A stretch of 29,713 bases of DNA from positions 1 through 29,713 of the forward strand of contig JAZLIA010000109.1 of assembly GCA_045617125.1 (NCBI GenBank). Direction: 5' to 3'. Every line of letters starts with the position of its first letter. Within the stretch, counting starts at the first letter, position 1. Below are positions 2,196-16,320 of the stretch, one piece after another. Position numbers and translations under genes: made by a program. This DNA is from Clostridia bacterium (GTDB lineage Bacteria > Bacillota > Clostridia > Christensenellales > Aristaeellaceae). A model generated the notes under the pieces. That model saw only the letters and a program-made list of their open reading frames with translations, was not told where the DNA came from and ran no database searches.

Positions 2196-2238
2196 ATCGT
2201 TCCTCCCGCTATGGCTGATAAATTGATCTCCTGTCTGC

Positions 2239-2267
2239 ATTATAGGGGCTATCGTCTGCTGTGTCAA
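2239..2267 (-). promoter_or_regulatory. sigma-A-type promoter of the GH1 gene
   Basis: Minus strand: TTGACA (2262-2267), 17 nt, TATAAT (2239-2244). Both hexamers are consensus, about 40 nt upstream of the ATG. Confidence 0.7.
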
Positions 2268-2312
2268 TGCGGTTTATTCTGTCCGGCTGTTTACGACAGG
2301 AGCAATGTTAAC

Positions 2313-2368
2313 AGAATAAAACAGCCCCGTTCCGATTCACAAGTAAATGTGAACCGAAACGGGGCTGT
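2313..2368 (-). terminator. intrinsic terminator after glgP
   Basis: Minus strand: acagccccgtttcggttcac / gtgaatcggaacggggctgt form a roughly 20-bp stem (two G-U pairs), followed by TTTTATT. It lies 17 nt after the glgP stop. Confidence 0.85.
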
Positions 2369-2384
2369 ATCCTGTTTCATATTA

Positions 2385-4808
2385 TCAGATGTGCCAGATA
2401 AGGTCGTTGTATTCCCGGATCGTTCTGTCACTGGAGAAGATGCCGCTCTTTGCGGTGTTGATCACAGCCATACGCAGCCACTTGTCCCGGTCGGCATAAT
2501 CCCGGTCCACTCTGCGCTGGGCCATGGAATAGCTGCCGAAATCCTTGAGAACGAAGTAAGGATCGGAGAAGAGCAGGTTGTGATAAATATCCTGCAGCGT
2601 GGCGGGGGCATCGGGGAAGAGCGTGCCGTCGATGATTTGCATCAGAGCCCGTCTGAGCTCGCCATTCGTTTCAAAAATGTGCATCGGGCTGTAGTTGCCT
2701 TCTTTATAGAGGGCGGATACCGTGTCGGCCCGCATGCCGAAAATGTAGATGTTGTCGTCGCCTACAGCGTCATAGATTTCCACATTGGCGCCGTCCATGG
2801 TGCCGATCGTGACCGCGCCGTTCATCATGAACTTCATGTTGCCGGTGCCGCTGGCTTCCTTGCCGGCGGTGGAGAGCTGCTCGCTCAGGTCTGCCGCGGG
2901 GATCAGGAATTCCGCGCTGGAAACATCGTAATTCTCCAGGAACACCACCTTCAGCATACGTTTGGCCCGAGGAGTGCGGTCGATCAGCTTGCTGATCGAG
3001 ATGATCAGGCGGATGATCTGTTTGGCCATATAGTAGCTGGGGCTGGCTTTGGCGCCAAAGATGAAGGTGCGGGGAGTCATTTCGTAGTTGGGATCATCCA
3101 TGATGCGGTTGTAAAGCACCAGGATGTGCAGGGCATTGAGCATCTGCCGCTTGTATTCGTGAAGGCGCTTGGCCTGAACGTCAAACATGAAATCCGGGTC
3201 CACACTCATCTTCTGCCGCTGCATCAGCATGTTGCTGAAGGCTTCCTTGTTTTTACGCTTCACCGTGTCAAATTCAGCCCGGAAAGCGGCGTCATCGGCG
3301 TAGGGGGTAAGGTCGTTCAGATACTCCGGTTCCTTTATCCATCTGTCGCCGATGGTTTCGAGCAGAAGGTGTTTCAGGTTGCGGTTGGCTGCCATCAGCC
3401 AGCGGCGATGGGTGATGCCGTTGGTGATCGAGCTGAATTTTTCGGGCATGACGCTGTAATAATCCCGGAAGGTATCCTGCTTGAGGATCTCACCGTGCAG
3501 CTGGCTCACACCGTTCACGGAATGGCTCATTGCCACGCACAGGTTGGCCATGTGCACCATATCGTAGGCCGTGACCGCCATGCCCGCGATGCGGGGATCA
3601 CACCCGTTGTTGAAATGATGGGCCAGACGCTCGCATACCCGGCGGTTGATTTCCTGAAGGATCATATAGATGCGGGGCACCACGTTTTTCATCATTTCCT
3701 CGGGCCAGCGTTCCAGGGCTTCGCTCATTACGGTGTGATTGGTGTAGGCGATGGTGTTGCGTACGATCAGGCTGGCTTCATCCCAGCCGAGGCCTTCTTC
3801 ATCGATCAAAAGCCTCATCAGCTCGGGAATGGCAAGGCCGGGATGGGTGTCGTTGATATGAATGGCCATTTTTTCCGGGATCAGGCGGAAATTGTTGCCG
3901 AAACGGCGCTTAAAATCCTTCAGAGCATACTGCAGTGTGGCACTGGTGAAAAAGTAGTGCTGCTTGAGACGCAGCTCGCGGCCTTCGTAGTGATTGTCAT
4001 CGGGATAGAGCACGCGGCTGATCACGGTGGCCAGGTCTTCCTCCTGCATGCTGCGCAGATAATCTCCGCCGCCGAACTGCAGAAGGCCTGTGGGGTTGGG
4101 AGATTTTGCGCGCCATGTGCGCAGGGAATTGACGGTGTCGTTGTCATAGCCGATCACGGGCATATCATAAGGAACGGCCAGAACCGTGCGGTAATCCTTC
4201 AGCTCGAATACCTGACGGCCATCTCTCACATTTTCATCGACCCGGCCATAGAAGTGCACCTCCATCGTGTCCTCGGGAGCGGCCACTTCCCACACGTTGC
4301 CGTTATCCAGCCAGCTGTCCGGAACCTCGACCTGCTGGCCGTTGATGATCCTCTGGCGGAACAGGCCGTATTCATAGCGGATGGTGCAGCCCATAGCAGG
4401 CAGCCCCAGGGAGGCCAGACTGTCCATGAAGCAGGCGGCCAGACGGCCCAGGCCGCCGTTGCCCAGGGCGGGTTCGGGTTCTTCCGTGAGTACCTGCCGC
4501 CAGTTGATGCCCAGCTCCTTCAGGGCTTCCACGTAGTTCTTGCTGCTGCACAGGTTGAGCATGTTGCAATAAAGGCTGCGGCCGGTAAGAAATTCCACCG
4601 ACAGATAATAGAGACGCTTTCCGGTGTAGCTTTTGTCCTTTTCGCGGGCAGCGGTCCACTTGAGCATGATCTGATCCCTCACCGTGGTGGCTACGGCATT
4701 GTAGATCTGCTGTGGGGTAGCATCATTCAGGGTGCGGCCATTATAGCGCTGCAGCTTGCTCACGATGGAGGTCTTGATGGATTCTTTATCGAAATGAGTG
4801 GTGGGCAT
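2385..4808 (-). CDS. glgP: glycogen/maltodextrin phosphorylase (GT35)
   Basis: About 807 aa, with the pyridoxal-phosphate site block EASGTGNMKFMMNGA and GT35-like sequence throughout. I moved the start to the ATG at 4808 (MPTTHFDKESIK), which is preceded by GGAGGA. Confidence 0.92.
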   Translation of the reverse strand: MPTTHFDKESIKTSIVSKLQRYNGRTLNDATPQQIYNAVATTVRDQIMLKWTAAREKDKSYTGKRLYYLSVEFLTGRSLYCNMLNLCSSKNYVEALKELGINWRQVLTEEPEPALGNGGLGRLAACFMDSLASLGLPAMGCTIRYEYGLFRQRIINGQQVEVPDSWLDNGNVWEVAAPEDTMEVHFYGRVDENVRDGRQVFELKDYRTVLAVPYDMPVIGYDNDTVNSLRTWRAKSPNPTGLLQFGGGDYLRSMQEEDLATVISRVLYPDDNHYEGRELRLKQHYFFTSATLQYALKDFKRRFGNNFRLIPEKMAIHINDTHPGLAIPELMRLLIDEEGLGWDEASLIVRNTIAYTNHTVMSEALERWPEEMMKNVVPRIYMILQEINRRVCERLAHHFNNGCDPRIAGMAVTAYDMVHMANLCVAMSHSVNGVSQLHGEILKQDTFRDYYSVMPEKFSSITNGITHRRWLMAANRNLKHLLLETIGDRWIKEPEYLNDLTPYADDAAFRAEFDTVKRKNKEAFSNMLMQRQKMSVDPDFMFDVQAKRLHEYKRQMLNALHILVLYNRIMDDPNYEMTPRTFIFGAKASPSYYMAKQIIRLIISISKLIDRTPRAKRMLKVVFLENYDVSSAEFLIPAADLSEQLSTAGKEASGTGNMKFMMNGAVTIGTMDGANVEIYDAVGDDNIYIFGMRADTVSALYKEGNYSPMHIFETNGELRRALMQIIDGTLFPDAPATLQDIYHNLLFSDPYFVLKDFGSYSMAQRRVDRDYADRDKWLRMAVINTAKSGIFSSDRTIREYNDLIWHI

Positions 4809-4867
4809 GACGGAAATCCTCCGGATATAATGATAAATGAAGATGATGCCGAAAAAGCACCATTCAC

Positions 4868-4896
4868 ATTTTATCATATCAGTCGTTTTGTTTCAA
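4868..4896 (-). promoter_or_regulatory. sigma-A-type promoter of glgP
   Basis: Minus strand: TTGAAA (4891-4896), 17 nt, TGaTAAAAT (extended -10, hexamer 4868-4873). Confidence 0.6.
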
Positions 4897-4937
4897 TGTG
4901 CAGACCGGGCCAATTCTGCCCTCTTCAGCCTGTTTTG

Positions 4938-6503
4938 TCAGTAATCGTAACCGAAATAGAAGCCGGGGTCGTTCAGCTGATATTTTTGTCCGTTAAAGAA
5001 GAACATGGAGCCGTAGGCCGGGAGGAACTCTTCTTCAGGATCGGAACCGTTTTCCATTTCAAGGTTCCACCAGCTTTCAAAGTCCGGTACTCCCAGAGCT
5101 GCTTTGGGAGTGAACCCGGAAAGATCAGTGGAGCCGTACCCGGACGCGCGGCAATCCAGCTTTACGGCAAGCTCATGCTGAATATCGCCTTCCACGGTCA
5201 CCATAAACACGGCTTCGCCGTTTACGCCTGTAAGGCGGCCCTGCGTGTCGGAGGTGAAAACGAGATCAACCTTTTTAAATCGGATCTGCTGCATCAGATA
5301 CATCAGGCTCTGGAAGGGTGTGAAACGCTCTCTCGCTGCGCGCAATTGATCGGGCATGGTGATCACTTCCGCCATTCCGTCCGCATAAATGTGCACTCCC
5401 AGGGCGTCTGGAACCTCTCTGGCCGCGGCCAGGTATTTTTCACACATGCCGCTCAGCATTTCCAGATAGGCCTGTTCCAGATTGGGGTCGCTGATCGGTC
5501 CGAACACAGCATATTCTGCTTCCCGGCTCATTTCTTCGCCGGTCACTTCCTGATAATAGGCGCGGAAAGCGGCGTCACGGTTATCCCAGATAAGCGGGAT
5601 ATCGTTGGACAGATGCAGATATTCTTCCTCTGTGTCAAAGGTGACGATGCTGCCGTCCTTCAGGATCACGGAATACATTTTTCCGGTAAGCCAGGCCTGC
5701 TGCTCCGTTTCGCCGATCTTGTCCGTCACGGTGAACCAGGCTTCCATTTCGGGGGTGTTTTCCTGATCGCTTGTCTGGATGCGATCCCAGAAATACTCCG
5801 GAAGAGGTTGCCCGTACATTTGTTCGTAGGTGTTGGCAAACAGGATGTCATAATCCTCATAGATCACCTGGGGTACCGGCTCCCAGTCATAGCCGACAAA
5901 CATGCCGGGATTGCCGTAACCCAGCTCCCAGGAAACCGAAGCGAGCATTTCCGGCAGAAATACCTGGATCGCTTCCGGAATGTTTTCTTCATCGGCCTTC
6001 AGCTGAACGCGGAGGGAACCGTCTTTAGTGCTTTCACTGCTTACGATGCCGGGAGAAAGCAGACTGCCCACATTGGCGATCACGGTGCCCGCGGCAGTGA
6101 AGGCTTCTTTCAGAATGCTGCTGCGGATCACGCTGCGGGACGGATCCACGCCGCAGTCGCCGTAATATTCCGTATCAAAATCGTGAAACCAGGCCAGACC
6201 GTCCTTTCCCAGCACGGAGTAGCCGCTGTGCCTGGTTGAACCGTCATGCAGGGGGGTGAACACGTTGATGCTCAGAAGCGAATCCAGCCCATCCTTGCTG
6301 ATTTCGGCTTCCACCTGCTTGAAGCTTTTTCCGTCCAGAAAAAACTCCGCCTTGCCGGAGAGGGATACGTTTTCCGTGTCGAAGGCCAGGGCACAGCCCT
6401 GCTTAAAAAGGGTGGAAAGTTCGGTCTCCGCCAGGGCAAGAGAAAGCACCATGAGCAGGATCCCCAAAGTGGTGAAAAGGGAAATTCGTTTTGCTTTTTT
6501 CAT
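4938..6503 (-). CDS. secreted protein of unknown function (about 521 aa)
   Basis: I set the start at the ATG at 6503 (MKKAKRISLFTTLGILLMVLSLALA ETEL). This gives a basic n-region, a hydrophobic core and an ALA-E signal-peptidase I-like site, with a GAGG SD 6 nt upstream. The track start at 6743 would overlap the upstream peptidase gene. I recognise no domain. Confidence 0.7.
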   Translation of the reverse strand: MKKAKRISLFTTLGILLMVLSLALAETELSTLFKQGCALAFDTENVSLSGKAEFFLDGKSFKQVEAEISKDGLDSLLSINVFTPLHDGSTRHSGYSVLGKDGLAWFHDFDTEYYGDCGVDPSRSVIRSSILKEAFTAAGTVIANVGSLLSPGIVSSESTKDGSLRVQLKADEENIPEAIQVFLPEMLASVSWELGYGNPGMFVGYDWEPVPQVIYEDYDILFANTYEQMYGQPLPEYFWDRIQTSDQENTPEMEAWFTVTDKIGETEQQAWLTGKMYSVILKDGSIVTFDTEEEYLHLSNDIPLIWDNRDAAFRAYYQEVTGEEMSREAEYAVFGPISDPNLEQAYLEMLSGMCEKYLAAAREVPDALGVHIYADGMAEVITMPDQLRAARERFTPFQSLMYLMQQIRFKKVDLVFTSDTQGRLTGVNGEAVFMVTVEGDIQHELAVKLDCRASGYGSTDLSGFTPKAALGVPDFESWWNLEMENGSDPEEEFLPAYGSMFFFNGQKYQLNDPGFYFGYDY

Positions 6504-6525
6504 GATCTGCCTCATCCTGTGTGAT

Positions 6526-7560
6526 TTATTCGTTTTCACTGTCGCTTTCAACAAAGGCCTTTGCCAGCATAAGGGTATTCCTGATGCCGTCCAGATGGGT
6601 GCGCTCGTAGCCGTGGGAGGCAAACACTCCGGGCCCGATGAGGGTATACCTGATGTCGTTTCCGCTGCGCAGAGCGGTCGAGCAGTCGGAGGAATAGGAG
6701 GGATACACGTCCACAGCGTAGGAAAGACGGTTTTCTTCGGCAAGAGAGATCAACCGGTGAGTGAGAATGTGATCGTAGGGGCCGGCGCTGTCCTTTGCAC
6801 AGATGGACACCATGTTTTCTCTGCAGCCCAGATCGTCTCCCACGCACCCCATATCGATGGCCAGCATGTCCCGGATGTTTTCCGGCAGCTTCATGCTGGC
6901 CCCGTGACCGACCTCCTCATAAACCGAGAACAGCAGCGTCACGTGCCGTTTCAGCTGAACTTCTCCGCTCCTGACCCCTTTGGCCAGGGAAAGCAATATG
7001 CCGCTGGAGGCTTTGTCATCCAAATGGCGGCTCTTGATGAACCCGGAGGGGGTCACACGCGTGCGGGGATCCCATGCAATGAAGCAGCCGGGGCGGATGC
7101 CAAGGGCTTCCGTGTCCGCTGCGGAGGATACGTTTTCATCCAGCACGATCTCCATCGTTTCTTCTTCCCGGCTGTCCTTGCCCATGCCGGGATACACGTG
7201 CTGACTGGCCTTCACATGCTGAACGGTGCCGGAATACTCTTTTCCGTCATAGGTAAAGACGGTGCAGTTTTCTGTTTCCACGGTCGCATCCTGCCAGCCG
7301 CCGATGTGAGTGTAACGCAGGCGGCCGTTTGGCTTCACCGAGCGCACCATTGCGCCGAGCGTATCCACATGGCTTGCCAGCAGTGTGCCTGTGCCTTCGC
7401 CGCCAAGGTCGCACATGACGGCGCCCTTACGGGTCTTTACAGGGGAAAAGCCCATTTCCAACAGGGTATTCATAAGATAATCCGTTACTTTGAACGTATA
7501 TCCCGTTGGGGAGGGAATAGAAAGCAAATGGGAGATCTGTTCGACAGCATAATCGATCAT
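6526..7560 (-). CDS. M42 family metallo-aminopeptidase (FrvX/CelM/PepA-like)
   Basis: The N-terminus LLSIPSPTGYT and the metal-ligand blocks SHVDTLG, HLDDKASSG, EEVGHGAS and IDMGCVGDD are typical of M42. The SD is GGAGG. Confidence 0.85.
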   Translation of the reverse strand: MIDYAVEQISHLLSIPSPTGYTFKVTDYLMNTLLEMGFSPVKTRKGAVMCDLGGEGTGTLLASHVDTLGAMVRSVKPNGRLRYTHIGGWQDATVETENCTVFTYDGKEYSGTVQHVKASQHVYPGMGKDSREEETMEIVLDENVSSAADTEALGIRPGCFIAWDPRTRVTPSGFIKSRHLDDKASSGILLSLAKGVRSGEVQLKRHVTLLFSVYEEVGHGASMKLPENIRDMLAIDMGCVGDDLGCRENMVSICAKDSAGPYDHILTHRLISLAEENRLSYAVDVYPSYSSDCSTALRSGNDIRYTLIGPGVFASHGYERTHLDGIRNTLMLAKAFVESDSENE

Positions 7561-7583
7561 TATTTATCGCCTCCAATCATTCA

Positions 7584-7616
7584 ATAAAAAGACGGCGGAT
7601 CATTTTTACCCGCCGT
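7584..7616 (-). terminator. intrinsic terminator after the CofE-like gene
   Basis: Minus strand: ACGGCGG, an 11-nt loop, CCGCCGT, then CTTTTTATT. Confidence 0.6.
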
Positions 7617-7622
7617 ATGGGA

Positions 7623-8363
7623 TCATTTTTTGAGGGGCCGGATCAGGATGAACGGGGTGAGCTCGTCTCCCTGGCCGGAGGGATTATCCTTCATGGCTTC
7701 CTGGATCTGGGCATCGGAAAGCGGGAAACGGGTGCCCTTGCCCAGCTGGTTCTGGTCAAAATCGTTGGCGTCCATCACCACAGTGGGAACGCCGGTCGCT
7801 TTCTCGATCTCGTCGCACAATTCGGGCGAGTTCTGCGGGTTGATCACGCCCATATTGTGATAAACCTCAAAGCTGCTGTCGGGATAGAAACCGTCAATGC
7901 CCGCCACGTCGTGTCCGCAGATCTTGTAGAACAGCCCCTTCACACCGAAGGGACGGGTGACAGCGGAAATGAGGGCGGCAAAGAGCACCCGGGGCAGGCC
8001 GCAGATCTCGATCACCAATTGCATTTTATGCTCGCTGTGCATTCCGATGCCGGTGGAATTGTGCCCGGCGAAAGGGGCCAGATGCCGGGCCCACCAGCCG
8101 GGATGAGTGTCTTCCAGCGTGCGCACGTTGTTTGTGCACATGCCCATCACCTTGGCTGTGAAGGAAAGACAGTCGCCCTTTTCGTAAAGGGGCAGTACAT
8201 ATTTGCGTACCAGCTCGCATTGATCCTCACCGGGGTTCACAAAGTGGGTCTGGATCGCGAAACGCTGATAGCTCCGGCCTTCAGCACCCTGAATGACGCC
8301 GCGGTCAAAATAAATGATGCCGTCCTTTTCCCGGCGCTGCTGCTGTGTGTTGCGGTTGCTCAT
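7623..8363 (-). CDS. F420-0:gamma-glutamyl ligase (CofE)-like domain protein
   Basis: The overall pattern (....GD.LSFTAKVMGM..., C-terminal DNPSGQGDELTPFILIRP) resembles the CofE/F420-ligase fold family that is widely mis-annotated in Firmicutes. I moved the start to the ATG at 8363 (MSNRNTQQ), preceded by GGAGGAG. Confidence 0.5.
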   Translation of the reverse strand: MSNRNTQQQRREKDGIIYFDRGVIQGAEGRSYQRFAIQTHFVNPGEDQCELVRKYVLPLYEKGDCLSFTAKVMGMCTNNVRTLEDTHPGWWARHLAPFAGHNSTGIGMHSEHKMQLVIEICGLPRVLFAALISAVTRPFGVKGLFYKICGHDVAGIDGFYPDSSFEVYHNMGVINPQNSPELCDEIEKATGVPTVVMDANDFDQNQLGKGTRFPLSDAQIQEAMKDNPSGQGDELTPFILIRPLKK

Positions 8364-8419
8364 CGTATTCTCCTCCGGAATATACGGATACACGTTTTCC
8401 GTACCTTGTTTCCGAATGC

Positions 8420-8448
8420 ATTTTACACCCCGGGAACGGGGATGTCAA
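8420..8448 (-). promoter_or_regulatory. sigma-A-type promoter of the CofE-like gene
   Basis: Minus strand: TTGACA (8443-8448), 17 nt, TAAAAT (8420-8425). Confidence 0.6.
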
Positions 8449-8492
8449 CGATGCTGATCTGTAAGTCTTCCTTTTTTATGCATCAAAAAAAC

Positions 8493-8521
8493 TTGATACC
8501 GGCTTTACGTATGGTTATAAT
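8493..8521 (+). promoter_or_regulatory. sigma-A-type promoter of the NUDIX gene
   Basis: TTGATA (8493-8498), 17 nt, TATAAT (8516-8521). It lies back-to-back with the minus-strand promoter about 45 nt away. Confidence 0.6.
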
Positions 8522-8631
8522 ATATACGTGGATTTGTTTGCATTCAGAAATCATGACCGGCTTTTCCTATCCTCTCTGCAGGGGGACGGATCCATATCCC
8601 AAAGAAAGAGAAGAGAACTCGGGAGGCATTT

Positions 8632-9159
8632 ATGGCAGAGGTATTTGATCTGCTGGATAAAAACCGGATTCCCACTGGAGAAAAGATCTTCCGGGGAAGT
8701 CATTTCAGCAAAGGGCAGTATCACCAGGTGGTACATATCTGTATTTTCAACCAGGCCGGGCAAATGCTCATCCAGCAGCGTCAGCCCTTTAAGGAAGGCT
8801 GGCCCGGTTTCTGGGATATCACCCTGGGCGGAAGCGCTGTTCAGGGAGAAGACCCCTGTGCGGGCGCTCACAGGGAACTGATGGAGGAACTGGGGATCGA
8901 TTATGACTTTACGGATGCCCGTCCTCAGCTGACGATCAACTTTGAACACGGGTTTGATGATTATTTCATCCTGGGGATGGAACTGGACCCGTCCGAGCTG
9001 CACCTTCAGCCGGAGGAAGTGCAATCCGCCCGCTGGGCTGCCAGGGATGAGATTCATGAAATGATCGACAGGGGCGTTTTCATTCCCTACTGGCATGAGC
9101 TTATCGACCTTCTTTTTGCCAGCCGGTTCCATTGGGGCGCGCATCAGCCCCATGATTGA
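8632..9159 (+). CDS. NUDIX hydrolase
   Basis: The Nudix box GX5EX7REUXEEXGU is present as GGSAVQGEDPCAGAHRELMEELGI. The SD is GGGAGG, 5 nt upstream of the ATG. Confidence 0.85.
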   Translation: MAEVFDLLDKNRIPTGEKIFRGSHFSKGQYHQVVHICIFNQAGQMLIQQRQPFKEGWPGFWDITLGGSAVQGEDPCAGAHRELMEELGIDYDFTDARPQLTINFEHGFDDYFILGMELDPSELHLQPEEVQSARWAARDEIHEMIDRGVFIPYWHELIDLLFASRFHWGAHQPHD

Positions 9160-9219: not shown

Positions 9220-9264
9220 TATGATATAGATGATCCGGTGAAATATCCGGGTCTGGGAGGGAAA

Positions 9265-11874
9265 ATGCTTAAGCTCAAAGGAATCAGAAAAGTGTATGAT
9301 GCGGGCGATACCCGCGTGGAAGCGCTCAAGGGCGTGGATCTGAACTTTCGCCGCAGCGAGTTCGTGGCTGTGCTGGGGCCTTCCGGCTGCGGAAAGACCA
9401 CTCTGCTCAACCTGATCGGCGGCCTGGACGGCTACACCGAGGGAGATCTGGTGATACGCGGCCGTTCCACCAAGGATTATAAGGACCGGGACTGGGACAG
9501 CTACCGCAACCATTCTGTCGGTTTTGTGTTCCAAAGCTATAACCTGATCCCGCACCAGACGGTGCTGCGCAATGTGGAGCTTGCTCTCACACTCAGCGGT
9601 GTGGGCAAGCGGGAGCGCCGCCGCCGGGCGGAGGAAGCCCTGAAAAACGTGGGTCTTGGCGATCAGCTTCATAAAAAACCCGCGCAGATGAGCGGCGGTC
9701 AGATGCAGCGTGTTGCCATTGCCAGGGCGCTGGTGAACGATCCGGAGATTTTGCTGGCAGATGAGCCTACCGGCGCACTGGACAGCGCAACCAGCGTGCA
9801 GGTGATGGACCTGCTGGCCCAGATCGCGAAAAACCGTCTGGTGATCATGGTGACGCACAACCCTGAACTGGCCGATCGGTATGCGAACCGCATTATCCGC
9901 CTTCTGGACGGAAAAGTGGTGGGAGACACCGCTCCCTATGACGGCAGGGATGAGGAAACGGAAAAGACAGGACGGGAAAAGAAGCCCTCGATGAGCTTCA
10001 CGACCGCTCTGGGCCTTTCTCTCAACAACCTGATGACCAAAAAGGCCAGGACCTTCCTTACCGCGTTTGCGGGATCGATCGGTATTATCGGCATTGCCCT
10101 GATCCTGGCGCTTTCCAACGGCGTGAACAACTATATTGATCGGGTGCAGGAGGACACGCTTTCCTCCTATCCGCTGAAGATCGAAGGCTCCACCGTGGAT
10201 ATGTCCGGCATGATGGAAGCCATGATGGGCGAGGTGAGCGAGAGCCGGGCGGAGCATGAGAATGACCGGGTGTATGCTAACAGCATCCTTACCCAGATGT
10301 TCTCCTCCATGATTTCCAATGTGACCGAAAATAACCTTGCCGCGTTCAAGGTCTACCTGGACAATGCCGACACGAAGGATCTGGTGAGCGACATCAAATA
10401 CGGTTATTCCACCCCGCTTACCCTGTATTACGACAGCCCGGATTACGGTATGGTGCAGGTGAACCCCTCCGCTGTGTTTTCCAACATGGGCATGCTCAGC
10501 GGCGCGGGTGTGGGCGCGATGAACAGCTTTTCTTCCTCCAGTCTCTTTTCTTCCGGAATGGAACAGATGGACGTGTGGGAGGAACTGATGGATAATGAAG
10601 CCCTGCTGAACCTTCAGTTTGACGTGGTGGCGGGGCGTATGCCGAAAAAATACGACGAAGCGGTGGTGATCGTCAATTCCCGCAACGAGGTCAGCGATTA
10701 TGCGCTGTATGCCCTGGGCCTGAGGGATCCTGATGAACCGGCCAGGATCATGCAGGAACTGGCGATGGGCAGGGAAATTCAGGCGGATACCTCTCTTTCC
10801 TACAGCTTCGATGAGATCCTGGGCCTCAACTTCACCTACATTCCCAGGGCGCTGACATATGAGCAGCAGGGAAATGTGTGGGTGGACCGCAGCGGCGATC
10901 CCGAATACCTGCGCAGTATGACGGAGCGGGGCCTGACGGTTCGCGTGGTTGGTATCATCCGCCCCTCTGATCAGGCTGTGGCGACCTCCACATCCTCCAG
11001 GGGCGGCATAGGTTACCTTTCCTCTTTGACCGAAATGGCGCTGGAAATGACGGCTCAGACCCCCGCGGTGAAGGCTCAGATGGAGCAGCCGGACCGTGAC
11101 ATTTTTACCGGCCTTCCCTTTGCCGGCAGCGAACCCGCGATGGATATGAGCACGTTTGACATAAGCACGCTTCCCGCGTCCCAGCAGGCGATGCTTCAGG
11201 GCATGAGCCCGGAGCAGATCCAGGCGCTGGCTGAAAAGTATATGAAGAGCAGTGTGTCGGAAAATACCTATAAGGATAATATGACCCTGCTTGGCATGAC
11301 CACGAGGGATAAGCCCTCCTCCATTTCCATTTATCCCAGAAGCTTTGAAGCCAAGGACACGATCATCAATATGATCGACCGGTATAATGAGCAGGCCGAA
11401 GAAAAAGACCGTATCCGCTACACCGATTATGTGGGCCTGCTGATGAGCTCGGTTACCACGATCATCAACGCGATCAGCTACATCCTCGTGGCCTTCGTTG
11501 CGATCTCGCTGGTGGTAAGCTCCATCATGATCGGCATCATCACTTACATCAGCGTACTCGAGCGCACCAAGGAGATCGGTATCCTGCGTGCCATCGGCGC
11601 CAGCAAGCGCGATATCAGCCGTGTGTTCAATGCGGAAACGCTGATCGAAGGCTTTGCTGCCGGGATCATCGGGATCGGTGTTACATTGCTGCTGGTGATC
11701 CTGGTCAACGTGATTTTGCTGGATCTTACCTCTATTGCCAACCTGGCAGGGCTGCCTGTGGAGGCTGCTGTCGCGCTCGTTGTGATCAGCATGGTGCTCA
11801 CCTTTATTGCCGGTCTCATCCCCAGCCGCATTGCCAGCAGGAAAGACCCTGTGATCGCGCTGAGAAGCGAGTGA
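9265..11874 (+). CDS. fused ABC ATPase / FtsX-family permease (MacB-type architecture)
   Basis: The N-terminal part has Walker [10 protein letters not shown], signature [14 protein letters not shown] and Walker [16 protein letters not shown] helix follows, then an extracytoplasmic domain of roughly 400 aa and a C-terminal FtsX-like 3-TM block ([19 protein letters not shown]). I set the start at the ATG at 9265 ([11 protein letters not shown]), after GGGAGGG. Confidence 0.88.
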
Positions 11875-11912
11875 CGGAAAATGACACCGATAACAGAAAC
11901 GGAGATAATCAC

Positions 11913-13709
11913 ATGGGAAAACTGATCGGTATTGACCTGGGAACCACCAACAGCTGCATGGCCGCTATGGAGGGCAGCGAAAAAATCATCATTCCCAACA
12001 GCGAGGGGGGGCGCACCACGCCTTCTGTGGTGGCCTTCACCAAGGAGGGAGAACGCCTGGTAGGCATGGCGGCCCGCAGACAGGCGGCTGTTCATCCGGA
12101 CAGGACGATCAGCTCCATCAAGCGTGATATGGGTACGGACCGGCGTGTTACGATCGACGGGCGGAAGTATACTCCCCAGGAGATCAGTGCGATGATCCTG
12201 CAAAAGCTGAAGATCGACGCGGAAGCGTATCTGGGTGAGCAGGTGACCGATGCGGTGATCACCGTGCCCGCGTACTTTACCGACAGTCAGCGCCAGGCTA
12301 CCAAGGACGCCGGACGCATTGCCGGGTTGAACGTGCAGCGCATCATCAACGAGCCTACTGCCGCGGCTCTGGCCTACGGGGTCGATAAGGAACAGGATCA
12401 GAAGGTGATGGTGTACGACCTGGGCGGCGGCACATTCGATGTGAGTGTGCTGGATATCAGCAGCGGTGTGATCCAGGTGCTGGCTACCGCGGGAAATAAC
12501 CGCCTGGGCGGAGACGATTTTGACGAATGCATCGTGCAGTATATTCTGGAGGCCTTCAAACGGGAGAACGGGGTGGATCTTAAAACCGATATGGCTGCGC
12601 TGCAGCGGGTGCGTGAGGCTGCTGAAAAAGCCAAGATCGAGCTTTCCGCCGCCACAGTGACCGAGATCAATCTTCCCTTTATCGCCCAAAAGCAGGGAAC
12701 CCCTCTGCATCTTTCCCTGTCGCTTACCCGGGCAAAATTCAACGAGCTTACCAGACATCTGGTGGATTCCACGCTGGGACCGGTGCAGCAGGCTCTGAGA
12801 GACAGCGGCCTGAGCGCCAGCCAGTTGGGCAAGGTGCTTCTGGTGGGCGGAAGCACCCGCATTCCCGCCGTGCAGGAGGAAGTGCGGAAACTGACCGGAA
12901 AGGAGCCCTTCAGAGGGATCAACCCGGATGAATGCGTCGCGATGGGCGCCTGTCTGCAGGGAGGCGTGCTTACCGGAAAGGTGGGCGGGCTGCTTTTGCT
13001 GGATGTGACCCCGCTTTCCCTTGGCATCGAAACCCTGGGCGGCGTCACCACCCGTTTGATCGAACGCAACACCACATTGCCTGTCAAGCGCAGTCAGGTG
13101 TTTACCACAGCAGCCAATTTCCAGACCTCGGTGGATATTCACGTTCTTCAGGGCGAAAGACAGATGGCTGACCAGAACAAAACTCTGGGCCGTTTCCGGC
13201 TCACCGGCATCAAACGGGCGCTGAGAGGCATTCCGCAGATCGAAGTGACCTTTGCGATCGACGCGAACGGCATCGTGAATGTTTCCGCCCGGGATTTGGG
13301 TACCGGACATGCTCAGGAGATCACCATCACGGCTTCCTCCAATCTGAGCCGGGAGGAGATCGACCGTGCGGTGCGGGAAGCCCAGCAGTATGCTGAGGAG
13401 GATGCCCGCAGGAAGGCCGAGGCAACTGCCAAAAACGATATGGAGCAGATGGAGTACCGGGCGTCGCTTCTCATGAAAAAGCTGGACAGGGGAGAAAAGC
13501 AGGAGCTGGCCGAGGCCCTTCAGCGTGTGAAGCACGCGAAAAAGAGCAAGGATGACGGCCGTCTGGCGGATGCCAACCGGGAGCTTCAGTATCTGCTGGA
13601 TCGACTGGAGGCCAAGTATGCCGCTCAGGGCGGGAACGACCCCGAAAACAGCGGCAGCGCGGATAAGAACAGCGAACAGGAGTTCTATGACGCGGATTTC
13701 AGCAATTGA
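11913..13709 (+). CDS. Hsp70 family chaperone, DnaK paralog in a non-canonical context
   Basis: Motifs [36 protein letters not shown], the linker [14 protein letters not shown] and a helical lid are all present. I set the start at the ATG at 11913 ([10 protein letters not shown]), after GGAGA and a 7-nt spacer. There is no hrcA or grpE nearby. Confidence 0.92.
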
Positions 13710-13742: not shown

Positions 13743-14561
13743 ATGTTTGGTTTTGTGACGGCGGATGTGGAAAAGCTGTCTCAGGAGCAGAAGGAAGTTT
13801 ACCGTGCCTTTTACTGCGGAGTGTGCCGGTCGCTCAAGGCCCGTCACGGAACGGCATGCGAGCTTGCTCTTTCCTACGACATGGTGTTCCTTACGATGCT
13901 GCTGATGAGTGTATACGGGGAGGAGCCGGAGGAGCATTTTGCCCGCTGTGTGCCTCATCCCGGAAAGCGTCACCGGTTTTACAAAAGTGAACTGATCGAT
14001 TATGCGGCGGATATGGGACTTATTCTCATGTACTATAAGCTCATGGATGACTGGACGGATGATCGGGACCCTGTCCGTTATGCCGGTAGCCGTATGATCC
14101 TGAGAAAGGCACGGGGGGCTGAGAATAAATGGCCCCGGCAGGCGGAGAAAATAAAGCAGTGCCTGAAGGAGCTTTCCGAGGCTGAAAAACGGGATGAAAG
14201 ACAGATCGATGTGCCTGCCCGCATATTCGGGGCGCTGATGGGGGAGCTGTTCGTTTACAGGGAAGATGGGTTTTCCCCGCTTTTATGGGAAACAGGCAGA
14301 TGCCTTGGCATGTATGTGTATCTTTGCGACGCTGCGCTGGACTTGAAGGAGGATCTGAAAAAGAAGCACTATAATCCCTTCGCAGGCTACGGAAGCAGCG
14401 GTGCATACGAAAGCCTGTGTGCGGTAATGGGACAGTGCAGCGCGGTTTATAGGCAATTACCGGTTGACAAAAACAAGGCGATTCTGGATAATATTCTGTA
14501 TTCAGGCGTGTGGGGCCGATGGAATCTGGCCCACGCACCCCGAAAGCAGGGTAAAAAATGA
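13743..14561 (+). CDS. DUF5685-like protein (uncharacterised; Cys cluster plus Asp-rich motifs)
   Basis: The N-terminus MFGFV....YRAFYCGVCRSL....LSYDMVFL matches my recollection of the DUF5685 family. It also has CVPHP, DDWTDD and DLKEDLKKKHYNPF. The SD is AAGGGGA. Confidence 0.75.
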   Translation: MFGFVTADVEKLSQEQKEVYRAFYCGVCRSLKARHGTACELALSYDMVFLTMLLMSVYGEEPEEHFARCVPHPGKRHRFYKSELIDYAADMGLILMYYKLMDDWTDDRDPVRYAGSRMILRKARGAENKWPRQAEKIKQCLKELSEAEKRDERQIDVPARIFGALMGELFVYREDGFSPLLWETGRCLGMYVYLCDAALDLKEDLKKKHYNPFAGYGSSGAYESLCAVMGQCSAVYRQLPVDKNKAILDNILYSGVWGRWNLAHAPRKQGKK

Positions 14562-14616
14562 TCCGGGCAGATGTTCCGGCTGAAAAAGACCGGCAGCCCG
14601 AAGGAGGACCGGACCG

Positions 14617-15393
14617 TTGAGCGATCCGTATCAGGTGCTTGGTGTGTCCCGCACAGCCAGTGAAGAGGAGATCAAGCGCGCCTACAGGAATCTGGCTAAA
14701 AAATATCATCCCGATCTGAATCCAAATGATCCCACTGCAGCCAAGAAGATGGAAGAGATCAATGCTGCCTATGATGCGATCAAATCCGGCAAGGCTGACA
14801 GCTACAGCTACTCCGGCAATTCCGGAAGCGGGAACCCCTACGGCAATCCGTATGGCAACCCCTACGGCAACGGTGGGAACAGCGGCTATGGCGGATATCA
14901 GAACGGGTATCAGAATAGCGGTTATTCCGGAAACGACCGTTATGCCGATCAGGAGGGGGATCCCTTTGGCGGCTTTGGTCCTTTCGGCTTTGGCCCCTTT
15001 GGCTTTGGCGGCTATCAGAGACGGCCGCAGTATCAGCCATCGGGGAGGTACCGCGGCGCCTGGCAGTATGTTCAAAGCGGTTCCTATCCGGATGCCATGC
15101 GCATCCTGAACAGCATATCAGACCGGGATGCGGAATGGTATTACGTTGCCGCGCGGGCACAGCAGGGGATGGGCAATGAAGTGACCGCGCTCAATTACGC
15201 CCGCACTGCGAGCCAGATGGCGCCGGATAATGAGGTGTTCCGTCAGTTTATGCAGGAAATGACGGGAGAGGGTGAAAGCTACCGTCAGCAGCAGAGCGGA
15301 ATGGGATTTTCCGCGTCGGGGGTATCCCGGATCTGCATCGGTTTGTGCCTGGCCAACATGTGCTGCCGCTATGGCGGCTGTTTCTTCTGCTGA
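14617..15393 (+). CDS. J-domain protein with G/Y/N/F-rich linker, TPR-like region and Cys-rich C-terminal tail
   Basis: The start is a TTG at 14617, 8 nt after AAGGAGGA. The J domain reads DPYQVLGV...[15 protein letters not shown] (HPD motif). It has no CxxCxGxG zinc-finger domain. The C-terminus is [20 protein letters not shown]. Confidence 0.88.
14830..14871 (+). repeat. in-frame 12-nt tandem repeat encoding (GNPY)x3
   Basis: ggg aac ccc tac / ggc aat ccg tat / ggc aac ccc tac / ggc aac, inside the J-protein gene. Confidence 0.9.
14965..15012 (+). repeat. in-frame repeat encoding [16 protein letters not shown] (G/F region)
   Basis: Repeated ggc ttt ggY ccY ttY units, inside the J-protein gene. 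Confidence 0.85.
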
Positions 15394-15435: not shown

Positions 15436-15876
15436 ATGGGACAGAAATTCAGGATGTGGCTGATCCGCGTGATGGAGGGCCGCTATGGCACCAGAGGAAT
15501 AGATCCGTTCAATCGTTTTCTGATCATTGCTTATTTTGCGCTTACGGTTTTGAATCTGATCCTTGCCGGAGTGCTTGGAGGCACGCTTCTGCTGCCCACG
15601 GTGCTGAGTTGGGCAGCGTTCATCCTGTTTCTGTTTCGTACTTTCAGCCGCAACATTCCAAAGCGTGAGATGGAAAATGAAAAATACCTCGCTGTTTCCC
15701 AGAATGTGAAGCGTTTTTTCCGCCGTCAGGTGAACCGGGTGAAGGAAGTTAAGACCCATCGCTACCGTAAATGTACTCACTGCAAAGCGGTGCTGCGCCT
15801 GCCGCGCAAAAAGGGCACCCTGAAGGTGAACTGCCCCCGGTGCAAGCAGGAATTTTCGGTCAAAATATGGTTCTGA
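15436..15876 (+). CDS. membrane protein with C-terminal zinc ribbon
   Basis: The SD is AGAGGAGG, 7 nt upstream. Two hydrophobic helices are present (FLIIAYFALTVLNLILAGVLGG, LLPTVLSWAAFILFLF), followed by a basic linker and then CTHC...(16 aa)...CPRC. Confidence 0.8.
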   Translation: MGQKFRMWLIRVMEGRYGTRGIDPFNRFLIIAYFALTVLNLILAGVLGGTLLLPTVLSWAAFILFLFRTFSRNIPKREMENEKYLAVSQNVKRFFRRQVNRVKEVKTHRYRKCTHCKAVLRLPRKKGTLKVNCPRCKQEFSVKIWF

Positions 15877-15880
15877 TGAT

Positions 15881-15922
15881 ACAGTAAAAGGAGCCGCATG
15901 AAGGCTCCTTTACTGTATTTTA
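15881..15922 (+). terminator. intrinsic terminator closing the Hsp70 operon
   Basis: acagtaaaaggagcc / ggctcctttactgt form a 14-bp stem with one bulged A and a 7-nt loop, followed by ATTTTA. It starts 5 nt after the stop codon. Confidence 0.7.
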
Positions 15923-15993
15923 GGCTGTAGCCCTTGGAAAGCAATGGTCGTATAAACAAATGGACTGGCAGGATCAGGATCGGAGGTATCGTT

Positions 15994-16320
15994 ATGAAAG
16001 AAAAGACGGTCAAAGCATTAAAACTGGATGACAGCTTGCTTGATATGGTTCATGGAGGAAATGGTGATGCGATGCTTGATATGAATTGCATCCTCGAAGG
16101 GGGCAAAGATGCGATGCCTGACATGAATAGCAACCTCGCATCGGTTTCCTCGGTGCCATCCGTGATATTATTATATCAGACACATGAGGGGGATTGCTTC
16201 TCTGTTCTGGCGGAAAAATACAATACGTCAGTGGCGATGATTCTAAGCTTGAACCATATTGCAGATCCAGACCATGTTGAATCCGGTAGATGGATCCGGA
16301 TCCCGTGTAATCAAAAATAA
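15994..16320 (+). CDS. small LysM-domain protein with a double-glycine-type N-terminal leader
   Basis: The ATG at 15994 is preceded by GGAGG and a 7-nt spacer. The N-terminus MKEKTVKALKLDDSLLDMVHGG has no hydrophobic Sec core. The C-terminal segment YQTHEGDCFSVLAEKYNTSVAMILSLNHIADPDHVESGRWIRIP fits the LysM consensus (Y.V..GD.L..IA.KY..S...L...N.......I..GQ.L.IP). Confidence 0.75.
   Translation: MKEKTVKALKLDDSLLDMVHGGNGDAMLDMNCILEGGKDAMPDMNSNLASVSSVPSVILLYQTHEGDCFSVLAEKYNTSVAMILSLNHIADPDHVESGRWIRIPCNQK
16066..16138 (+). repeat. imperfect 42-nt in-frame tandem duplication inside the LysM gene
   Basis: gatgcgatgcttgatatgaattgcatcctcg (16066-16096) versus gatgcgatgcctgacatgaatagcaacctcg (16108-16138) match at 27/31 positions. 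A third partial copy, cttgatatg, lies at 16039-16047. Confidence 0.85.

Follow-up and report, generated by a model that had tools for sequence, protein, structure and literature searches.

The attachment of prenyl or acyl groups to cysteines of cytosolic proteins after translation (S-prenylation and S-acylation) is regarded as a eukaryotic trait. Among the J-domain co-chaperones, cysteine-string protein (CSP, DNAJC5) carries about 14 cysteines in 24 residues in an internal segment which is S-palmitoylated by DHHC enzymes; the unmodified string already has an affinity for membranes, and lipidation stabilises the attachment. The farnesylated class A proteins Ydj1 and DNAJA1/2 are tethered to membranes through a C-terminal S-prenyl cysteine, the kind of tether also proposed in this study. 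The eukaryotic protein prenyltransferases are built on alpha-alpha barrel beta-subunits and not on the isoprenoid-synthase fold.

Bacteria possess membrane-associated J-proteins as well. In E. coli, these include DjlA and the tail-anchored class C proteins DjlB and DjlC, which act with the specialised Hsp70 HscC (PMC8215388). DjlB and DjlC are encoded beside this dedicated Hsp70 paralog and are presumed to be chaperones of membrane proteins, and HscC/DjlB/DjlC mutants are Cd-sensitive (PMC8215388). The prenylation of peptides by isoprenoid-synthase-fold enzymes is likewise known from Firmicutes, where it is carried out by ComQ, PalQ and ChrPC (PMC13290415). Known bacterial cases are restricted to Trp residues in small pheromones and RiPPs, and the characterised trans-IDS-like peptide prenyltransferases all modify Trp, not Cys (PMC13290415).

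The window analysed here is a complete stretch of 29,713 nt from a Clostridia bacterium (Christensenellales; Aristaeellaceae; assembly GCA_045617125.1, contig JAZLIA010000109.1). It contains an Hsp70 paralog, a DUF5685 protein, a J-protein and a small membrane protein termed G4, encoded in this order on the plus strand and closed as a four-gene unit by a terminator-like hairpin:

11871..13709, + strand: DnaK-type Hsp70 paralog, the first cassette gene (PF00012, E=6.8e-222)
13743..14561, + strand: DUF5685 protein (PF18937, E=3e-83)
14601..14607, + strand: Shine-Dalgarno sequence AAGGAGG, read from the sequence, 9 nt before the TTG start
14617..15393, + strand: J-protein ORF of 258 aa, TTG start at 14617
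14617..14808, + strand: J domain, aa 1-64, with the HPD motif at 14707..14715 (PF00226, AF2, Foldseek)
14809..15018, + strand: disordered Gly/Tyr/Asn/Phe linker, aa 65-134 (TRF arrays; AF2 pLDDT < 50)
15043..15300, + strand: TPR-like helical domain, aa 143-228 (AF2, Pfam matches of the family, Foldseek)
15322..15390, + strand: C-terminal Cys-rich hydrophobic helix, aa 236-258 (conservation, AF2), a proposed lipidated membrane anchor
15436..15876, + strand: G4, small membrane protein (family defined by jackhmmer; weak zinc-ribbon Pfam matches)
15887..15911, + strand: terminator-like hairpin and T tract (9-bp stem with 5 G-C pairs, then ACTGTATTTT)

The explanation preferred here, which is held tentatively and at somewhat less than even chances, is that the C-terminal tail of the J-protein anchors it to the membrane and that DUF5685 S-lipidates the cysteines of this tail, probably with prenyl groups. 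Two other roles were dismissed: heat-shock regulation of the cassette, as the whole window is devoid of a CIRCE/HrcA operator even when 3 mismatches are allowed, and anti-phage defence, as PADLOC returned zero matches for any of the four cassette proteins.

The product of 14617..15393 is a J-domain co-chaperone of class C, and its family is spread across the Clostridia. Its N-terminus, counted from the TTG, lines up with the N-termini of homologs in the alignment. The J domain matches PF00226 (E=6e-21, aa 3-56), is modelled by AF2 with pLDDT > 90 and retrieves J-domain structures in Foldseek, including DnaJ bound to DnaK (5nro) and 2ctw, while H31, P32 and D33 of the HPD motif (aa 31-33) are invariant throughout the family. 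The class C assignment follows from the absence of matches to the C-terminal beta-sandwich (PF01556) and zinc finger (PF00684) of classes A and B, and from a TIGR02349 score of 75.7 bits, far below the cut-off of 377 and with only aa 4-77 aligned. Even though the protein is not of class A or B, it contains a G/F-like stretch. Tandem DNA repeats were found in this linker by TRF at three sites (12 nt x3.6 at 14829..14871, 12 nt x2 at 14892..14915 and 15 nt x2.7 at 14970..15009); they are in frame and encode (GNPY)x3 among others. Linker length and sequence vary widely among homologs, but a G/F-type core, DPFG..FGPFG, is conserved.

Behind the linker, AlphaFold2 predicts five helices in aa 143-228 (pLDDT 94-98), for which Foldseek retrieves the TPR domains of Cyp40, PP5, SPAG1, Sec72 and Fis1. 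In Pfam searches the window protein itself stays below threshold (TPR_19, E=0.018); 24 of 40 family members match Fis1_TPR_C, and others match TPR_2, TPR_14 or TPR_19. W174, Y175 and Y176 are conserved within the block, and the module of TPR domain plus tail alone comprises 776 clusters at 50% identity. As modelled, the protein fits the DnaJ-TPR architecture, which is common among class C J-proteins (PMC10410713). The initial annotation, made from the DNA letters, had thus read this part of the gene correctly: the TTG start with its strong Shine-Dalgarno sequence, the HPD J domain, the in-frame (GNPY)x3 and GFGPF-type repeats and the TPR-like segment are all borne out, the last by structure prediction and by the family rather than by the window protein's own sub-threshold match.

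The tail of the window protein ends in CFFC and has 6 Cys in its last 20 residues, a count that had also been remarked upon. It is not a chance feature, since 117 of the 120 best homologs carry 4-8 Cys in the same span; orthologs were found to conserve both the tail and the TPR block, so that one condition named in the initial annotation as refuting its reading, a tail missing or Cys-poor in orthologs, did not arise. In 199 relatives, 23% of the residues in the last 25 positions are cysteines, as opposed to 0.36% elsewhere. The tails consist otherwise of Leu, Phe, Ile, Met and Gly, with His (0.2%), Asp (1.3%) and Glu (0.6%) being scarce, and the spacing of the cysteines differs from one subfamily to another. 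AF2 places a helix at aa 236-252 (pLDDT ~80). A Lachnospiraceae variant, CCDLWCxDxLCECMGGDLCxCM, is acidic and resembles a metal site, and is still paired with DUF5685.

Hydrophobicity was summed over the best 19 residues on the Hessa scale, with the values of Hessa et al. 2005 and without regard to residue position. By this measure the window tail scores +3.95 and 177 Cys-type tails have a median of +4.4, none falling below +0.9, compared with a median of -0.3 for the transmembrane segments of the neighbouring G4 proteins. Because Cys-type tails fail these sums, an unmodified transmembrane anchor appears unlikely from their composition, and this candidate was dropped. A CaaX box is not conserved either, and no single C-terminal motif is kept across the 199 members: 43 end in xxCC, 30 in xxxC, 18 in xCxC and 14 in CxxC, 30 have no Cys in the last four residues, and only ~14% have Cys at position -4. 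The endings CC, CxC and C, reminiscent of Rab termini, are found in many members. Compared with Ydj1, there are several cysteines in place of one conserved CaaX cysteine, and some members continue for ~40 aa of hydrophilic sequence beyond the Cys segment, so that the modification cannot need a CaaX-type C-terminal position.

The likeness to CSP lies in the order of an N-terminal J domain, a linker and a hydrophobic Cys-dense segment, which attaches CSP to membranes, and in the structural similarity of the J domains (2ctw being among the Foldseek matches). Homology is confined to the J domain, so the likeness is one of analogy and not of membership. The string of CSP is internal and has more Cys, whereas the family described here has 4-8 Cys (6 in the window protein) at or near the C-terminus, a TPR domain, and a lipidation that we infer. 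The candidate modifier has an isoprenoid-synthase fold instead of being a DHHC enzyme, and no DHHC-type gene is present within the cassette.

The predicted structure of DUF5685 (pLDDT 93, pTM 0.90) was compared with the PDB. All 50 top Foldseek matches in the PDB belong to the isoprenoid-synthase superfamily (probability up to 1.00, TM 0.45-0.59); MoeN5 is the best of them, and FPPS, the hexaprenyl- and solanesyl-PP synthases (HexPPS, SPS) and GGPPS are also among the top matches. The model thereby displays an all-alpha class I isoprenoid synthase/prenyltransferase fold. The model has two Asp-rich motifs, DDWTDD at aa 102-107 (family form DDWxD(D/E)) and DAALDLKED at aa 196-204 (family form DAxxDxxxD). 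Each is found where a long helix ends on its C-terminal side, which is also the position of FARM and SARM, the DDxxD motifs that in this superfamily face the active-site cavity and bind Mg-diphosphate. In an alignment of 40 sequences at a family identity of ~40%, D102, D103, D106, D196, D200 and D204 are invariant, as is a Cys3His site (C25, C28, C69, H72) which probably binds zinc. Four protein ligands are typical of structural zinc, and this was counted against the lipidation reading.

The assignment rests on structure comparison, since sequence searches gave none. Among 40 DUF5685 members searched against Pfam at E up to 10, PF18937 was the only match, with no polyprenyl_synt, SQS_PSY or ComQ; a PDB profile search returned noise at E=0.2-1.5 and a weak match to the terpene synthase Sat1646 (E=1.5). 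With hhalign, the sole local match to E. coli IspA and IspB sets the second motif on SARM at a probability of 0.5%. The second motif reads DAxxD and departs from DDxxD. These two points, the lack of significant sequence similarity to polyprenyl synthases or ComQ and the DAxxD motif, were counted against lipidation together with the Trp-only precedents.

DUF5685 is predicted to share the isoprenoid-synthase fold with ComQ, PalQ, ChrPC and MoeN5. These enzymes prenylate peptides or other non-isoprenoid acceptors, which in Firmicutes are encoded by a neighbouring gene. It differs from them in lacking significant sequence similarity and in having the additional Cys3His site and a beta-hairpin. The acceptors differ as well: ComQ, PalQ and ChrPC target Trp (PMC13290415) and MoeN5 a lipid, whereas the proposed acceptor of DUF5685 would be Cys in a folded protein of ~250 aa.

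The ComQ/ComX-type pairing of such an enzyme with a small modified peptide raises another explanation, namely that the Cys-rich C-terminus is a RiPP-like core peptide, with the J and TPR domains as its leader, which DUF5685 modifies before cleavage and release. That Clostridia commonly make Cys-rich peptides such as SCIFF would suit this idea. We nevertheless consider it extremely improbable: a leader of ~235 aa with functional J and TPR domains would be unprecedented, no protease, exporter or radical-SAM gene is conserved beside the pair, and a clade with Cys-less tails (see below) has the same architecture without DUF5685.

DUF5685 is present in at least 579 species genomes. In ~75 of the 77 genomes that are informative on this point, its gene immediately precedes the J gene, and the two often overlap by 4 nt. 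The pairing of DUF5685 with the J gene is near-obligate. G4 adjoins the pair, upstream or downstream, in ~36 of the 77 DUF5685-anchored loci. It has an N-terminal GRYG, two predicted TM segments, an FSRN..KR..EN motif and a C-terminal CxxC...CxxC zinc ribbon, and is likely a membrane partner or client of the J-protein. The Hsp70 paralog of the window (NF001413 DnaK, 859 bits) probably starts at the ATG at 11913. In an NJ tree the cassette-linked Hsp70s form a clade apart from the canonical DnaKs of dnaK-dnaJ operons. Hsp70 adjoins the DUF5685-J pair in only ~8 of 77 loci and was therefore dropped as an obligate cassette member.

With its Hsp70 paralog, a J-protein that is proposed to be membrane-directed and a membrane protein, the window resembles the DjlB/DjlC-HscC system. 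The tails of DjlB and DjlC are, however, genuine C-terminal TM helices, while the tail described here fails the TM test; the cassette Hsp70 is DnaK-like and not HscC-like; and that system lacks anything comparable to the TPR domain, the Cys string or DUF5685. The view that nothing equivalent is described from bacteria, expressed in the initial annotation, accordingly needs to be divided: it does not hold for membrane-tethered J-proteins (DjlA, DjlB and DjlC; PMC8215388) or for DnaJ-TPR proteins (PMC10410713), but it stands for a Cys string with a DUF5685 partner, which appears undescribed in the searched literature. Searches for DUF5685, for a bacterial cysteine string and for a J-protein with a prenyltransferase yielded nothing relevant. 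The system may be seen as a variant of membrane-tethered J-proteins and possibly as a new bacterial protein-lipidation system.

A third homolog search recovered ~19 J-protein members whose tails are Cys-less. Here every Cys is replaced by Ile, Phe, Leu or Val, position for position, as illustrated by the Cys-less tail GRIILGFFVANILLSFFARLFF against the Cys-type tail ICLGLCLANLCCMFCGRPF. DUF5685 is missing from 6 of 6 Cys-less loci examined, so that tail cysteines and DUF5685 are jointly absent, and G4 directly follows the J gene in all six. The locus L173, for instance, reads RR/HK, Hsp70-J-G4 and otherwise mirrors L001, which reads RR/HK, Hsp70-DUF5685-J-G4. The zinc-ribbon membrane protein noted early on downstream of the J gene is thus a conserved neighbour in loci of both types. 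The Cys-less tails are far more hydrophobic than the Cys type (Hessa-scale median +0.8, p=2e-10) and borderline as TM segments, which fits a compensation for the lost lipid. The clade has a common RLFF terminus. Its loci probably go back to a single loss or to two and are therefore no statistically independent cases of the association between cysteines and DUF5685. A metagenome scan that started from Cys-less members and used J-domain patterns returned mostly ordinary DnaJ loci and zero new Cys-less examples. The non-independence of this association was counted against lipidation, as were the acidic Lachnospiraceae tail and the members with extensions of ~40 aa.

The Cys-less relatives, which work with a purely hydrophobic tail, also speak for an explanation in which the tail binds membranes by itself, as a hydrophobic or amphipathic helix without any modification. 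DUF5685 would then not be an enzyme acting on the tail; it would be a stoichiometric partner, for example an escort shielding the Cys helix in its hydrophobic pocket, or else depend on the J-protein as its client or act as its effector. Genes for J-proteins often occur together with those of their clients or modulators, as in HscB-IscU and CbpA-CbpM. The tail is indeed predicted to be helical, isoprenoid-synthase folds possess deep hydrophobic pockets, and DUF5685 is without sequence-level membership of any catalytic family. This explanation leaves open why Cys is kept at 5-6 positions where DUF5685 is present and replaced where it is not; furthermore, on the Hessa scale the Cys-type tails show little hydrophobicity, and the invariance of D102, D106, D196, D200 and D204 at ~40% identity argues for catalysis or metal-diphosphate binding. 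It is therefore considered unlikely, while retaining some weight.

In three loci, Cys-less J-G4 pairs lie beside the copper genes csoR-copA-copZ. This is one of several points in favour of a metal (Zn, Fe-S, Cu) or redox-sensing site in the Cys cluster, possibly completed by the Cys3His of DUF5685, through which oxidative or metal stress would activate the co-chaperone in these anaerobes, in the manner of the zinc centre of Hsp33 or the zinc fingers of DnaJ. The density of the cysteines, the metal-site-like Lachnospiraceae variant, the invariant C25, C28, C69 and H72 of DUF5685 and the Cd-sensitivity of the E. coli HscC/DjlB/DjlC mutants likewise speak for it. Conversely, the residues between the cysteines are hydrophobic, with the scarcity of His, Asp and Glu given above, and Cys spacing varies by subfamily; the Cys-less clade keeps its tail with hydrophobic replacements instead of losing it; and the Asp-rich motifs and prenyltransferase fold of DUF5685 go unexplained. 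A metal or redox site, one of the alternatives offered in the initial annotation, is for these reasons disfavoured and rated as quite improbable.

The lipidation reading, in turn, draws on the tail being conserved and Cys-enriched and yet, in its Cys type, not TM-like; on a DUF5685 model that matches only isoprenoid-synthase-fold prenyltransferases in the PDB; on Asp residues that are invariant and placed like FARM and SARM; on the position of DUF5685 upstream of the J gene in ~75 of 77 genomes; on the joint absence of cysteines and DUF5685 from the Cys-less clade; and on the Firmicutes precedent of ComQ, PalQ and ChrPC. Of the two forms of membrane anchor suggested at the outset, the lipid-modified one thus gains indirect support from the fold of DUF5685 and its tracking of the tail cysteines, whereas an unmodified TM form is made unlikely by the hydrophobicity median of +4.4. 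That DUF5685 represents a new type of protein prenyltransferase with a possible zinc site, S-prenylating several tail cysteines of a dedicated J-protein, is possible, with the balance tilted rather more against than for it.

Under the lipidation reading, the J domain would stimulate a DnaK-type Hsp70 through its HPD motif. In the window this partner would be the dedicated paralog two genes upstream of the J gene, and in most genomes it would necessarily be the housekeeping DnaK. The flexible G/F-type repeat linker would join the J domain to the small TPR domain, a putative protein-protein interaction module that may bind the cytosolic zinc-ribbon domain of the 2-TM protein G4 or an acidic Hsp70 C-terminus. 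The Cys-rich amphipathic helix, too short and polar to cross the bilayer unaided, would pin the J-protein to the cytoplasmic face of the membrane once its cysteines were S-alkylated, the most likely group being a prenyl moiety donated by FPP or GGPP. Modification would fall to DUF5685, whose gene directly precedes the J gene, often with translational coupling, and which combines a predicted isoprenoid-synthase fold with two Asp-rich motifs of the Mg-diphosphate type and a Cys3His site probably holding zinc. As a result, a DnaK-type Hsp70 would be brought to the membrane.

If this is true, Clostridia, including many gut commensals, would possess an endogenous system for the S-lipidation of cytosolic proteins, as well as a bacterial protein that matches cysteine-string protein or farnesylated Ydj1 in function. 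The system would tether Hsp70 at the membrane beside a small zinc-ribbon membrane protein. The two-gene cassette of DUF5685 and the J-protein makes bacterial protein lipidation directly testable and gives the Pfam DUF PF18937 a concrete functional hypothesis. The analysis also defines a large uncharacterised family of class C J-proteins, and it suggests that Clostridia direct an Hsp70 pathway to the membrane, for which some lineages encode a dedicated DnaK paralog. In a related Clostridial locus, the partner of a cassette-clade Hsp70 is a J-protein with a genuine TM helix, which was counted in favour of the membrane-anchor reading.

The J-protein is encoded by the third of four consecutive genes, whose order recurs identically in Acetivibrio cellulolyticus and on other contigs.

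Features of the four-gene row (window coordinates) and of the J-protein (aa)
11871..13709: DnaK-type Hsp70, first gene
13743..14561: DUF5685 (PF18937), second gene
14617..15393, forward strand: J-protein, third gene, 258 aa, TTG start, with AAGGAGG read in the sequence 9 nt upstream on the same strand
14829..14871: 12-nt tandem repeat, 3.6 copies, in frame, J-protein linker
14892..14915: 12-nt tandem repeat, 2 copies, in frame, J-protein linker
14970..15009: 15-nt tandem repeat, 2.7 copies, in frame, J-protein linker
15436..15876: fourth gene, membrane protein of 146 aa, two TM segments, zinc ribbon (CxxC...CxxC) at the C-terminus
15887..15911: terminator-like hairpin closing the row
aa 3-56: J domain (PF00226, E=6e-21), HPD motif at aa 31-33
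aa 1-64: J domain in the AlphaFold2 model, pLDDT above 90
aa 65-134: disordered linker in the model, pLDDT below 50
aa 143-228: five-helix repeat domain in the model, pLDDT 94-98
aa 236-252: terminal helix in the model, pLDDT about 80

The TTG start with its Shine-Dalgarno sequence, already read in the initial annotation, is supported by the N-termini of homologs, which line up with that of the J-protein. The HPD-bearing J domain and the repeats described there are likewise confirmed, with (GNPY)x3, (GYQN)x2 and FGPFG encoded by genuine in-frame DNA repeats. Among homologs, the linker varies strongly in length and sequence around a constant G/F-type core, DPFGGFxPFGxFG. The TPR-like segment corresponds to the five-helix domain of the AlphaFold2 model (40-sequence alignment), which Foldseek matches to the TPR domains of Cyp40, PP5, SPAG1, Sec72 and Fis1. 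Those of Cyp40, PP5, SPAG1 and Sec72 are of the type clamping the C-terminal peptides of Hsp70 and Hsp90. Within the family, 24 of 40 members match Fis1_TPR_C and others TPR_2, TPR_14 or TPR_19. Since the domain search of the J-protein found neither DnaJ_C nor a zinc-finger domain, and DnaJ equivalog models cover only its J/G-F part, it is a class C member of the J-domain family, with the DnaJ-TPR architecture common in that class (PMC10410713).

The Cys-rich C-terminus, with six Cys in a 20-residue tail, proved to be conserved. A search of 5.8 billion proteins gave thousands of J-domain matches, and the best 120 relatives are all full-length (208-283 aa) and from Clostridia; 117 carry 4-8 Cys within the last 20 residues, and in the remaining three this Cys-rich hydrophobic segment is also present but continues into a hydrophilic extension of ~40 aa. 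Across 199 members, 23% of the last 25 residues are Cys, compared with 0.36% elsewhere in the protein; the tail otherwise consists mostly of Leu, Gly, Phe, Asn, Ile, Arg and Met, with His, Asp and Glu nearly absent. The TPR-plus-tail module as query retrieved 776 cluster representatives (50% identity), 316 of them with E≤1e-10. The outcome named in the initial annotation as refuting, orthologs whose tail is missing or poor in Cys, is thus not what the homologs show. Tail hydrophobicity was scored by adding up Hessa-scale values (Hessa et al., 2005) irrespective of position and taking the best window of 19 residues. It amounts to +3.95 for the tail in the window and a median of +4.4 for 177 Cys-type tails, none below +0.9, as opposed to a median of -0.3 for the TM segments of the small zinc-ribbon protein. 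These sums, together with a conserved hydrophobic run of only ~12-15 residues and a central conserved Asn, Arg or Gln (CLANLCC, CLARLCC), make an ordinary transmembrane anchor unlikely for the Cys-type tail. The hydrophobic context and variable spacing of the cysteines also speak against a metal or redox centre, a reading which is favored by the acidic, non-hydrophobic Lachnospiraceae-type tail CCDLWCxDxLCECMGGDLCxCM. This tail still lies downstream of DUF5685 (loci L022, L039, L052, L057, L058, L061, L063, L067, L074, L076 and L081), and the zinc-ribbon gene is mostly missing within 7 kb of it.

A DUF5685 profile scan of one genome per species identified at least 579 carriers, spanning Clostridium, Dehalobacter, Oscillospiraceae, Lachnospiraceae, Eubacterium, Dorea, Blautia and a few Spirochaetes MAGs. 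Of 80 loci kept, 77 were informative, and in about 75 of these a Cys-tailed J gene directly follows DUF5685, frequently with a 4-nt overlap; of the exceptions, one lacks a J gene, one looks like a pseudogene and one has a MATE transporter between the two genes. The zinc-ribbon gene adjoins, upstream or downstream, in about 36/77 loci and the Hsp70 gene in only about 8/77, so that the DUF5685-J pair forms the invariant core. A RiPP-like nature of the Cys tail finds no supporting genes in this neighborhood.

Two representatives with hydrophobic, Cys-free tails led, by further homolog search, to about 19 such proteins. Compared with the Cys-type ending KICLGLCLANLCCMFCGRPF, endings such as GRIILGFFVANILLSFFARLFF and HIVRNIAFAILIWNFLTLFFGRLFF retain the Gly and Ala-Asn positions, and each Cys gives way to Ile, Phe, Leu or Val; these tails are much the more hydrophobic, their Hessa-scale median being +0.8 versus +4.4 for the Cys type (Mann-Whitney p=2e-10). 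DUF5685 was detected in no frame in the six Cys-less loci examined, all of which carry the zinc-ribbon gene directly downstream. A naive locus count (0/6 versus about 80/82 for the Cys type, Fisher p=5e-8) overstates independence, as an RLFF terminus is common to the Cys-less proteins, which probably descend from one or two loss events. Especially telling is the Cys-less locus L173, where a response regulator and kinase precede Hsp70-J-zinc ribbon, while the same regulators precede Hsp70-DUF5685-J-zinc ribbon in L001 and L178. A tail with three Cys is still accompanied by DUF5685, as are tails with a C-terminal extension. Because the tail survives replacement of all its cysteines by bulky hydrophobic residues, its basic role is established as hydrophobic, and the functional tie of the cysteines to DUF5685 is established as well. 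The existence of the Cys-less clade further weakens the metal or redox reading, which draws some support from the copper-operon surroundings of one subclade (L088, L089, L174 and L175), where the copper-efflux genes csoR-copA-copZ immediately precede the J/zinc-ribbon pair, itself back-to-back with the canonical grpE-dnaK-dnaJ operon. We regard it as quite probable that the tail, hydrophobic or membrane-bound, is coupled in function to DUF5685.

The searchable literature yielded no paper describing the J-protein family, its tail or DUF5685, which is merely listed for Clostridioides difficile R20291 in one in-silico survey. Invariant in 40 aligned DUF5685 sequences are M1-F2-G3, C25-G-x-C28 and C69 (with near-invariant H72), Y87-A-A-D90, D102-D103-W with D106, and D196-A-x-x-D200-x-x-x-D204 followed by Y210-N-P. 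The Met-Phe-Gly start, unusual for an N-terminus in being identical in 40/40, suggests a structural or catalytic role as judged from the alignment, and the Cys3His site would also suit a metal or redox function. The AlphaFold2 model (pLDDT 93, pTM 0.90) is all-alpha with one beta-hairpin, and all 50 top Foldseek matches in the PDB are prenyltransferases of the isoprenoid-synthase fold, led by MoeN5 (E about 1e-3, TM about 0.5) and followed by FPPS, hexaprenyl- and solanesyl-diphosphate synthases (TM up to 0.59) and GGPPS. MoeN5 and the trans-isoprenyl diphosphate synthases are the closest structural relatives of DUF5685. In the model, each of the two Asp-rich motifs is located where a long helix (83-107 and 178-199) reaches its C-terminal end, like the FARM and SARM of isoprenoid synthases. 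At the sequence level, Pfam returns PF18937 only, a PDB profile search gave nothing significant (a weak terpene-synthase match across the second motif, E=1.5), and hhalign against E. coli IspA and IspB gave a probability of 0.5%, its sole local alignment placing GxxLGrFIYimDAxxD on the SARM segment iGlAFQvqDDiLD. The predicted prenyltransferase-type fold is therefore well supported, whereas catalytic equivalence is only suggested.

Most economically, DUF5685 would S-alkylate, probably prenylate, the tail cysteines and thereby make a membrane anchor of a helix that is itself weakly hydrophobic, and lineages without the enzyme would have compensated via intrinsically greasier residues. DUF5685 could instead escort or partner an unmodified helix, which is consistent with the co-loss of Cys and DUF5685 but accounts neither for the invariant Asp motifs nor for why Cys in particular is required. 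Covalent S-lipidation by DUF5685 is put forward tentatively, as somewhat doubtful. Its closest functional precedent is the ComQ, PalQ and ChrPC group, whose characterized members all prenylate Trp (PMC13290415), whereas Cys is proposed here. The hypothesis that a DUF5685 enzyme S-prenylates protein in bacteria is specific and testable and may prove important. Under S-alkylation, the J domain would activate a DnaK-type Hsp70 at the membrane, and the TPR domain would bind a partner or client, the prime candidate being the co-conserved zinc-ribbon membrane protein, which lies downstream as first annotated, and an alternative the acidic Hsp70 C-terminus.

The cassette-linked Hsp70s form a clade apart from the canonical DnaKs of dnaK-dnaJ operons. 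A member of this clade also directly follows, at L100:4986-7367, the gene for a different J-protein of 208 aa. That protein lacks both TPR domain and Cys tail; its J domain is similar, its linker Gly-rich, and it carries a true TM helix (STLLYILAAFLLLNLLSSFLT). Both observations are consistent with a branch of Hsp70s in Clostridia that is directed to the membrane. The J-protein may be likened in function, not homology, to eukaryotic cysteine-string protein and farnesylated Ydj1/DNAJA, and DjlB and DjlC of E. coli, tail-anchored partners of HscC, appear to be functional analogues (PMC8215388); the Cd sensitivity of hscC/djlBC mutants would accord with a metal or redox role (PMC8215388). Membrane localization and tail chemistry are both inferred. 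The J-protein is a conserved, uncharacterized variant of membrane-directed J-proteins; every sequence feature of the initial observation is confirmed, and the initial interpretation is largely upheld and sharpened.

Cassettes that have or recently had an Hsp70 gene (L001, L090, L172, L173, L178) show a conserved divergent OmpR-type response regulator and HAMP-HisKA kinase directly upstream, absent from the window, a hint that the cassettes may be under an envelope-stress two-component system. In one lineage (L005:7230-9134), a cassette without upstream Hsp70 is directly followed by an HtpG (Hsp90) gene. In the window, an 878-aa fused ABC ATPase-FtsX permease (9238..11874, forward) has a stop overlapping the annotated GTG start of Hsp70, and a sigma-70-like site (11881..11909) immediately precedes the more probable ATG at 11913. 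A near-consensus sigma-70-like promoter (14464..14492, forward; TTGACA-17-GATAAT, 11/12 matches) within the DUF5685 3' end might allow the J-protein and zinc-ribbon genes to be transcribed separately. Three consecutive large ORFs (1596..6239, 6256..7587 and 7617..8648, forward; 1547, 443 and 343 aa) lack any Pfam match at E≤1e-3. Just past the terminator, a TTG-initiated 128-aa LysM-domain protein (15934..16320, forward) weakly resembles the LysM regions of the spore-coat proteins SafA and SpoVID.
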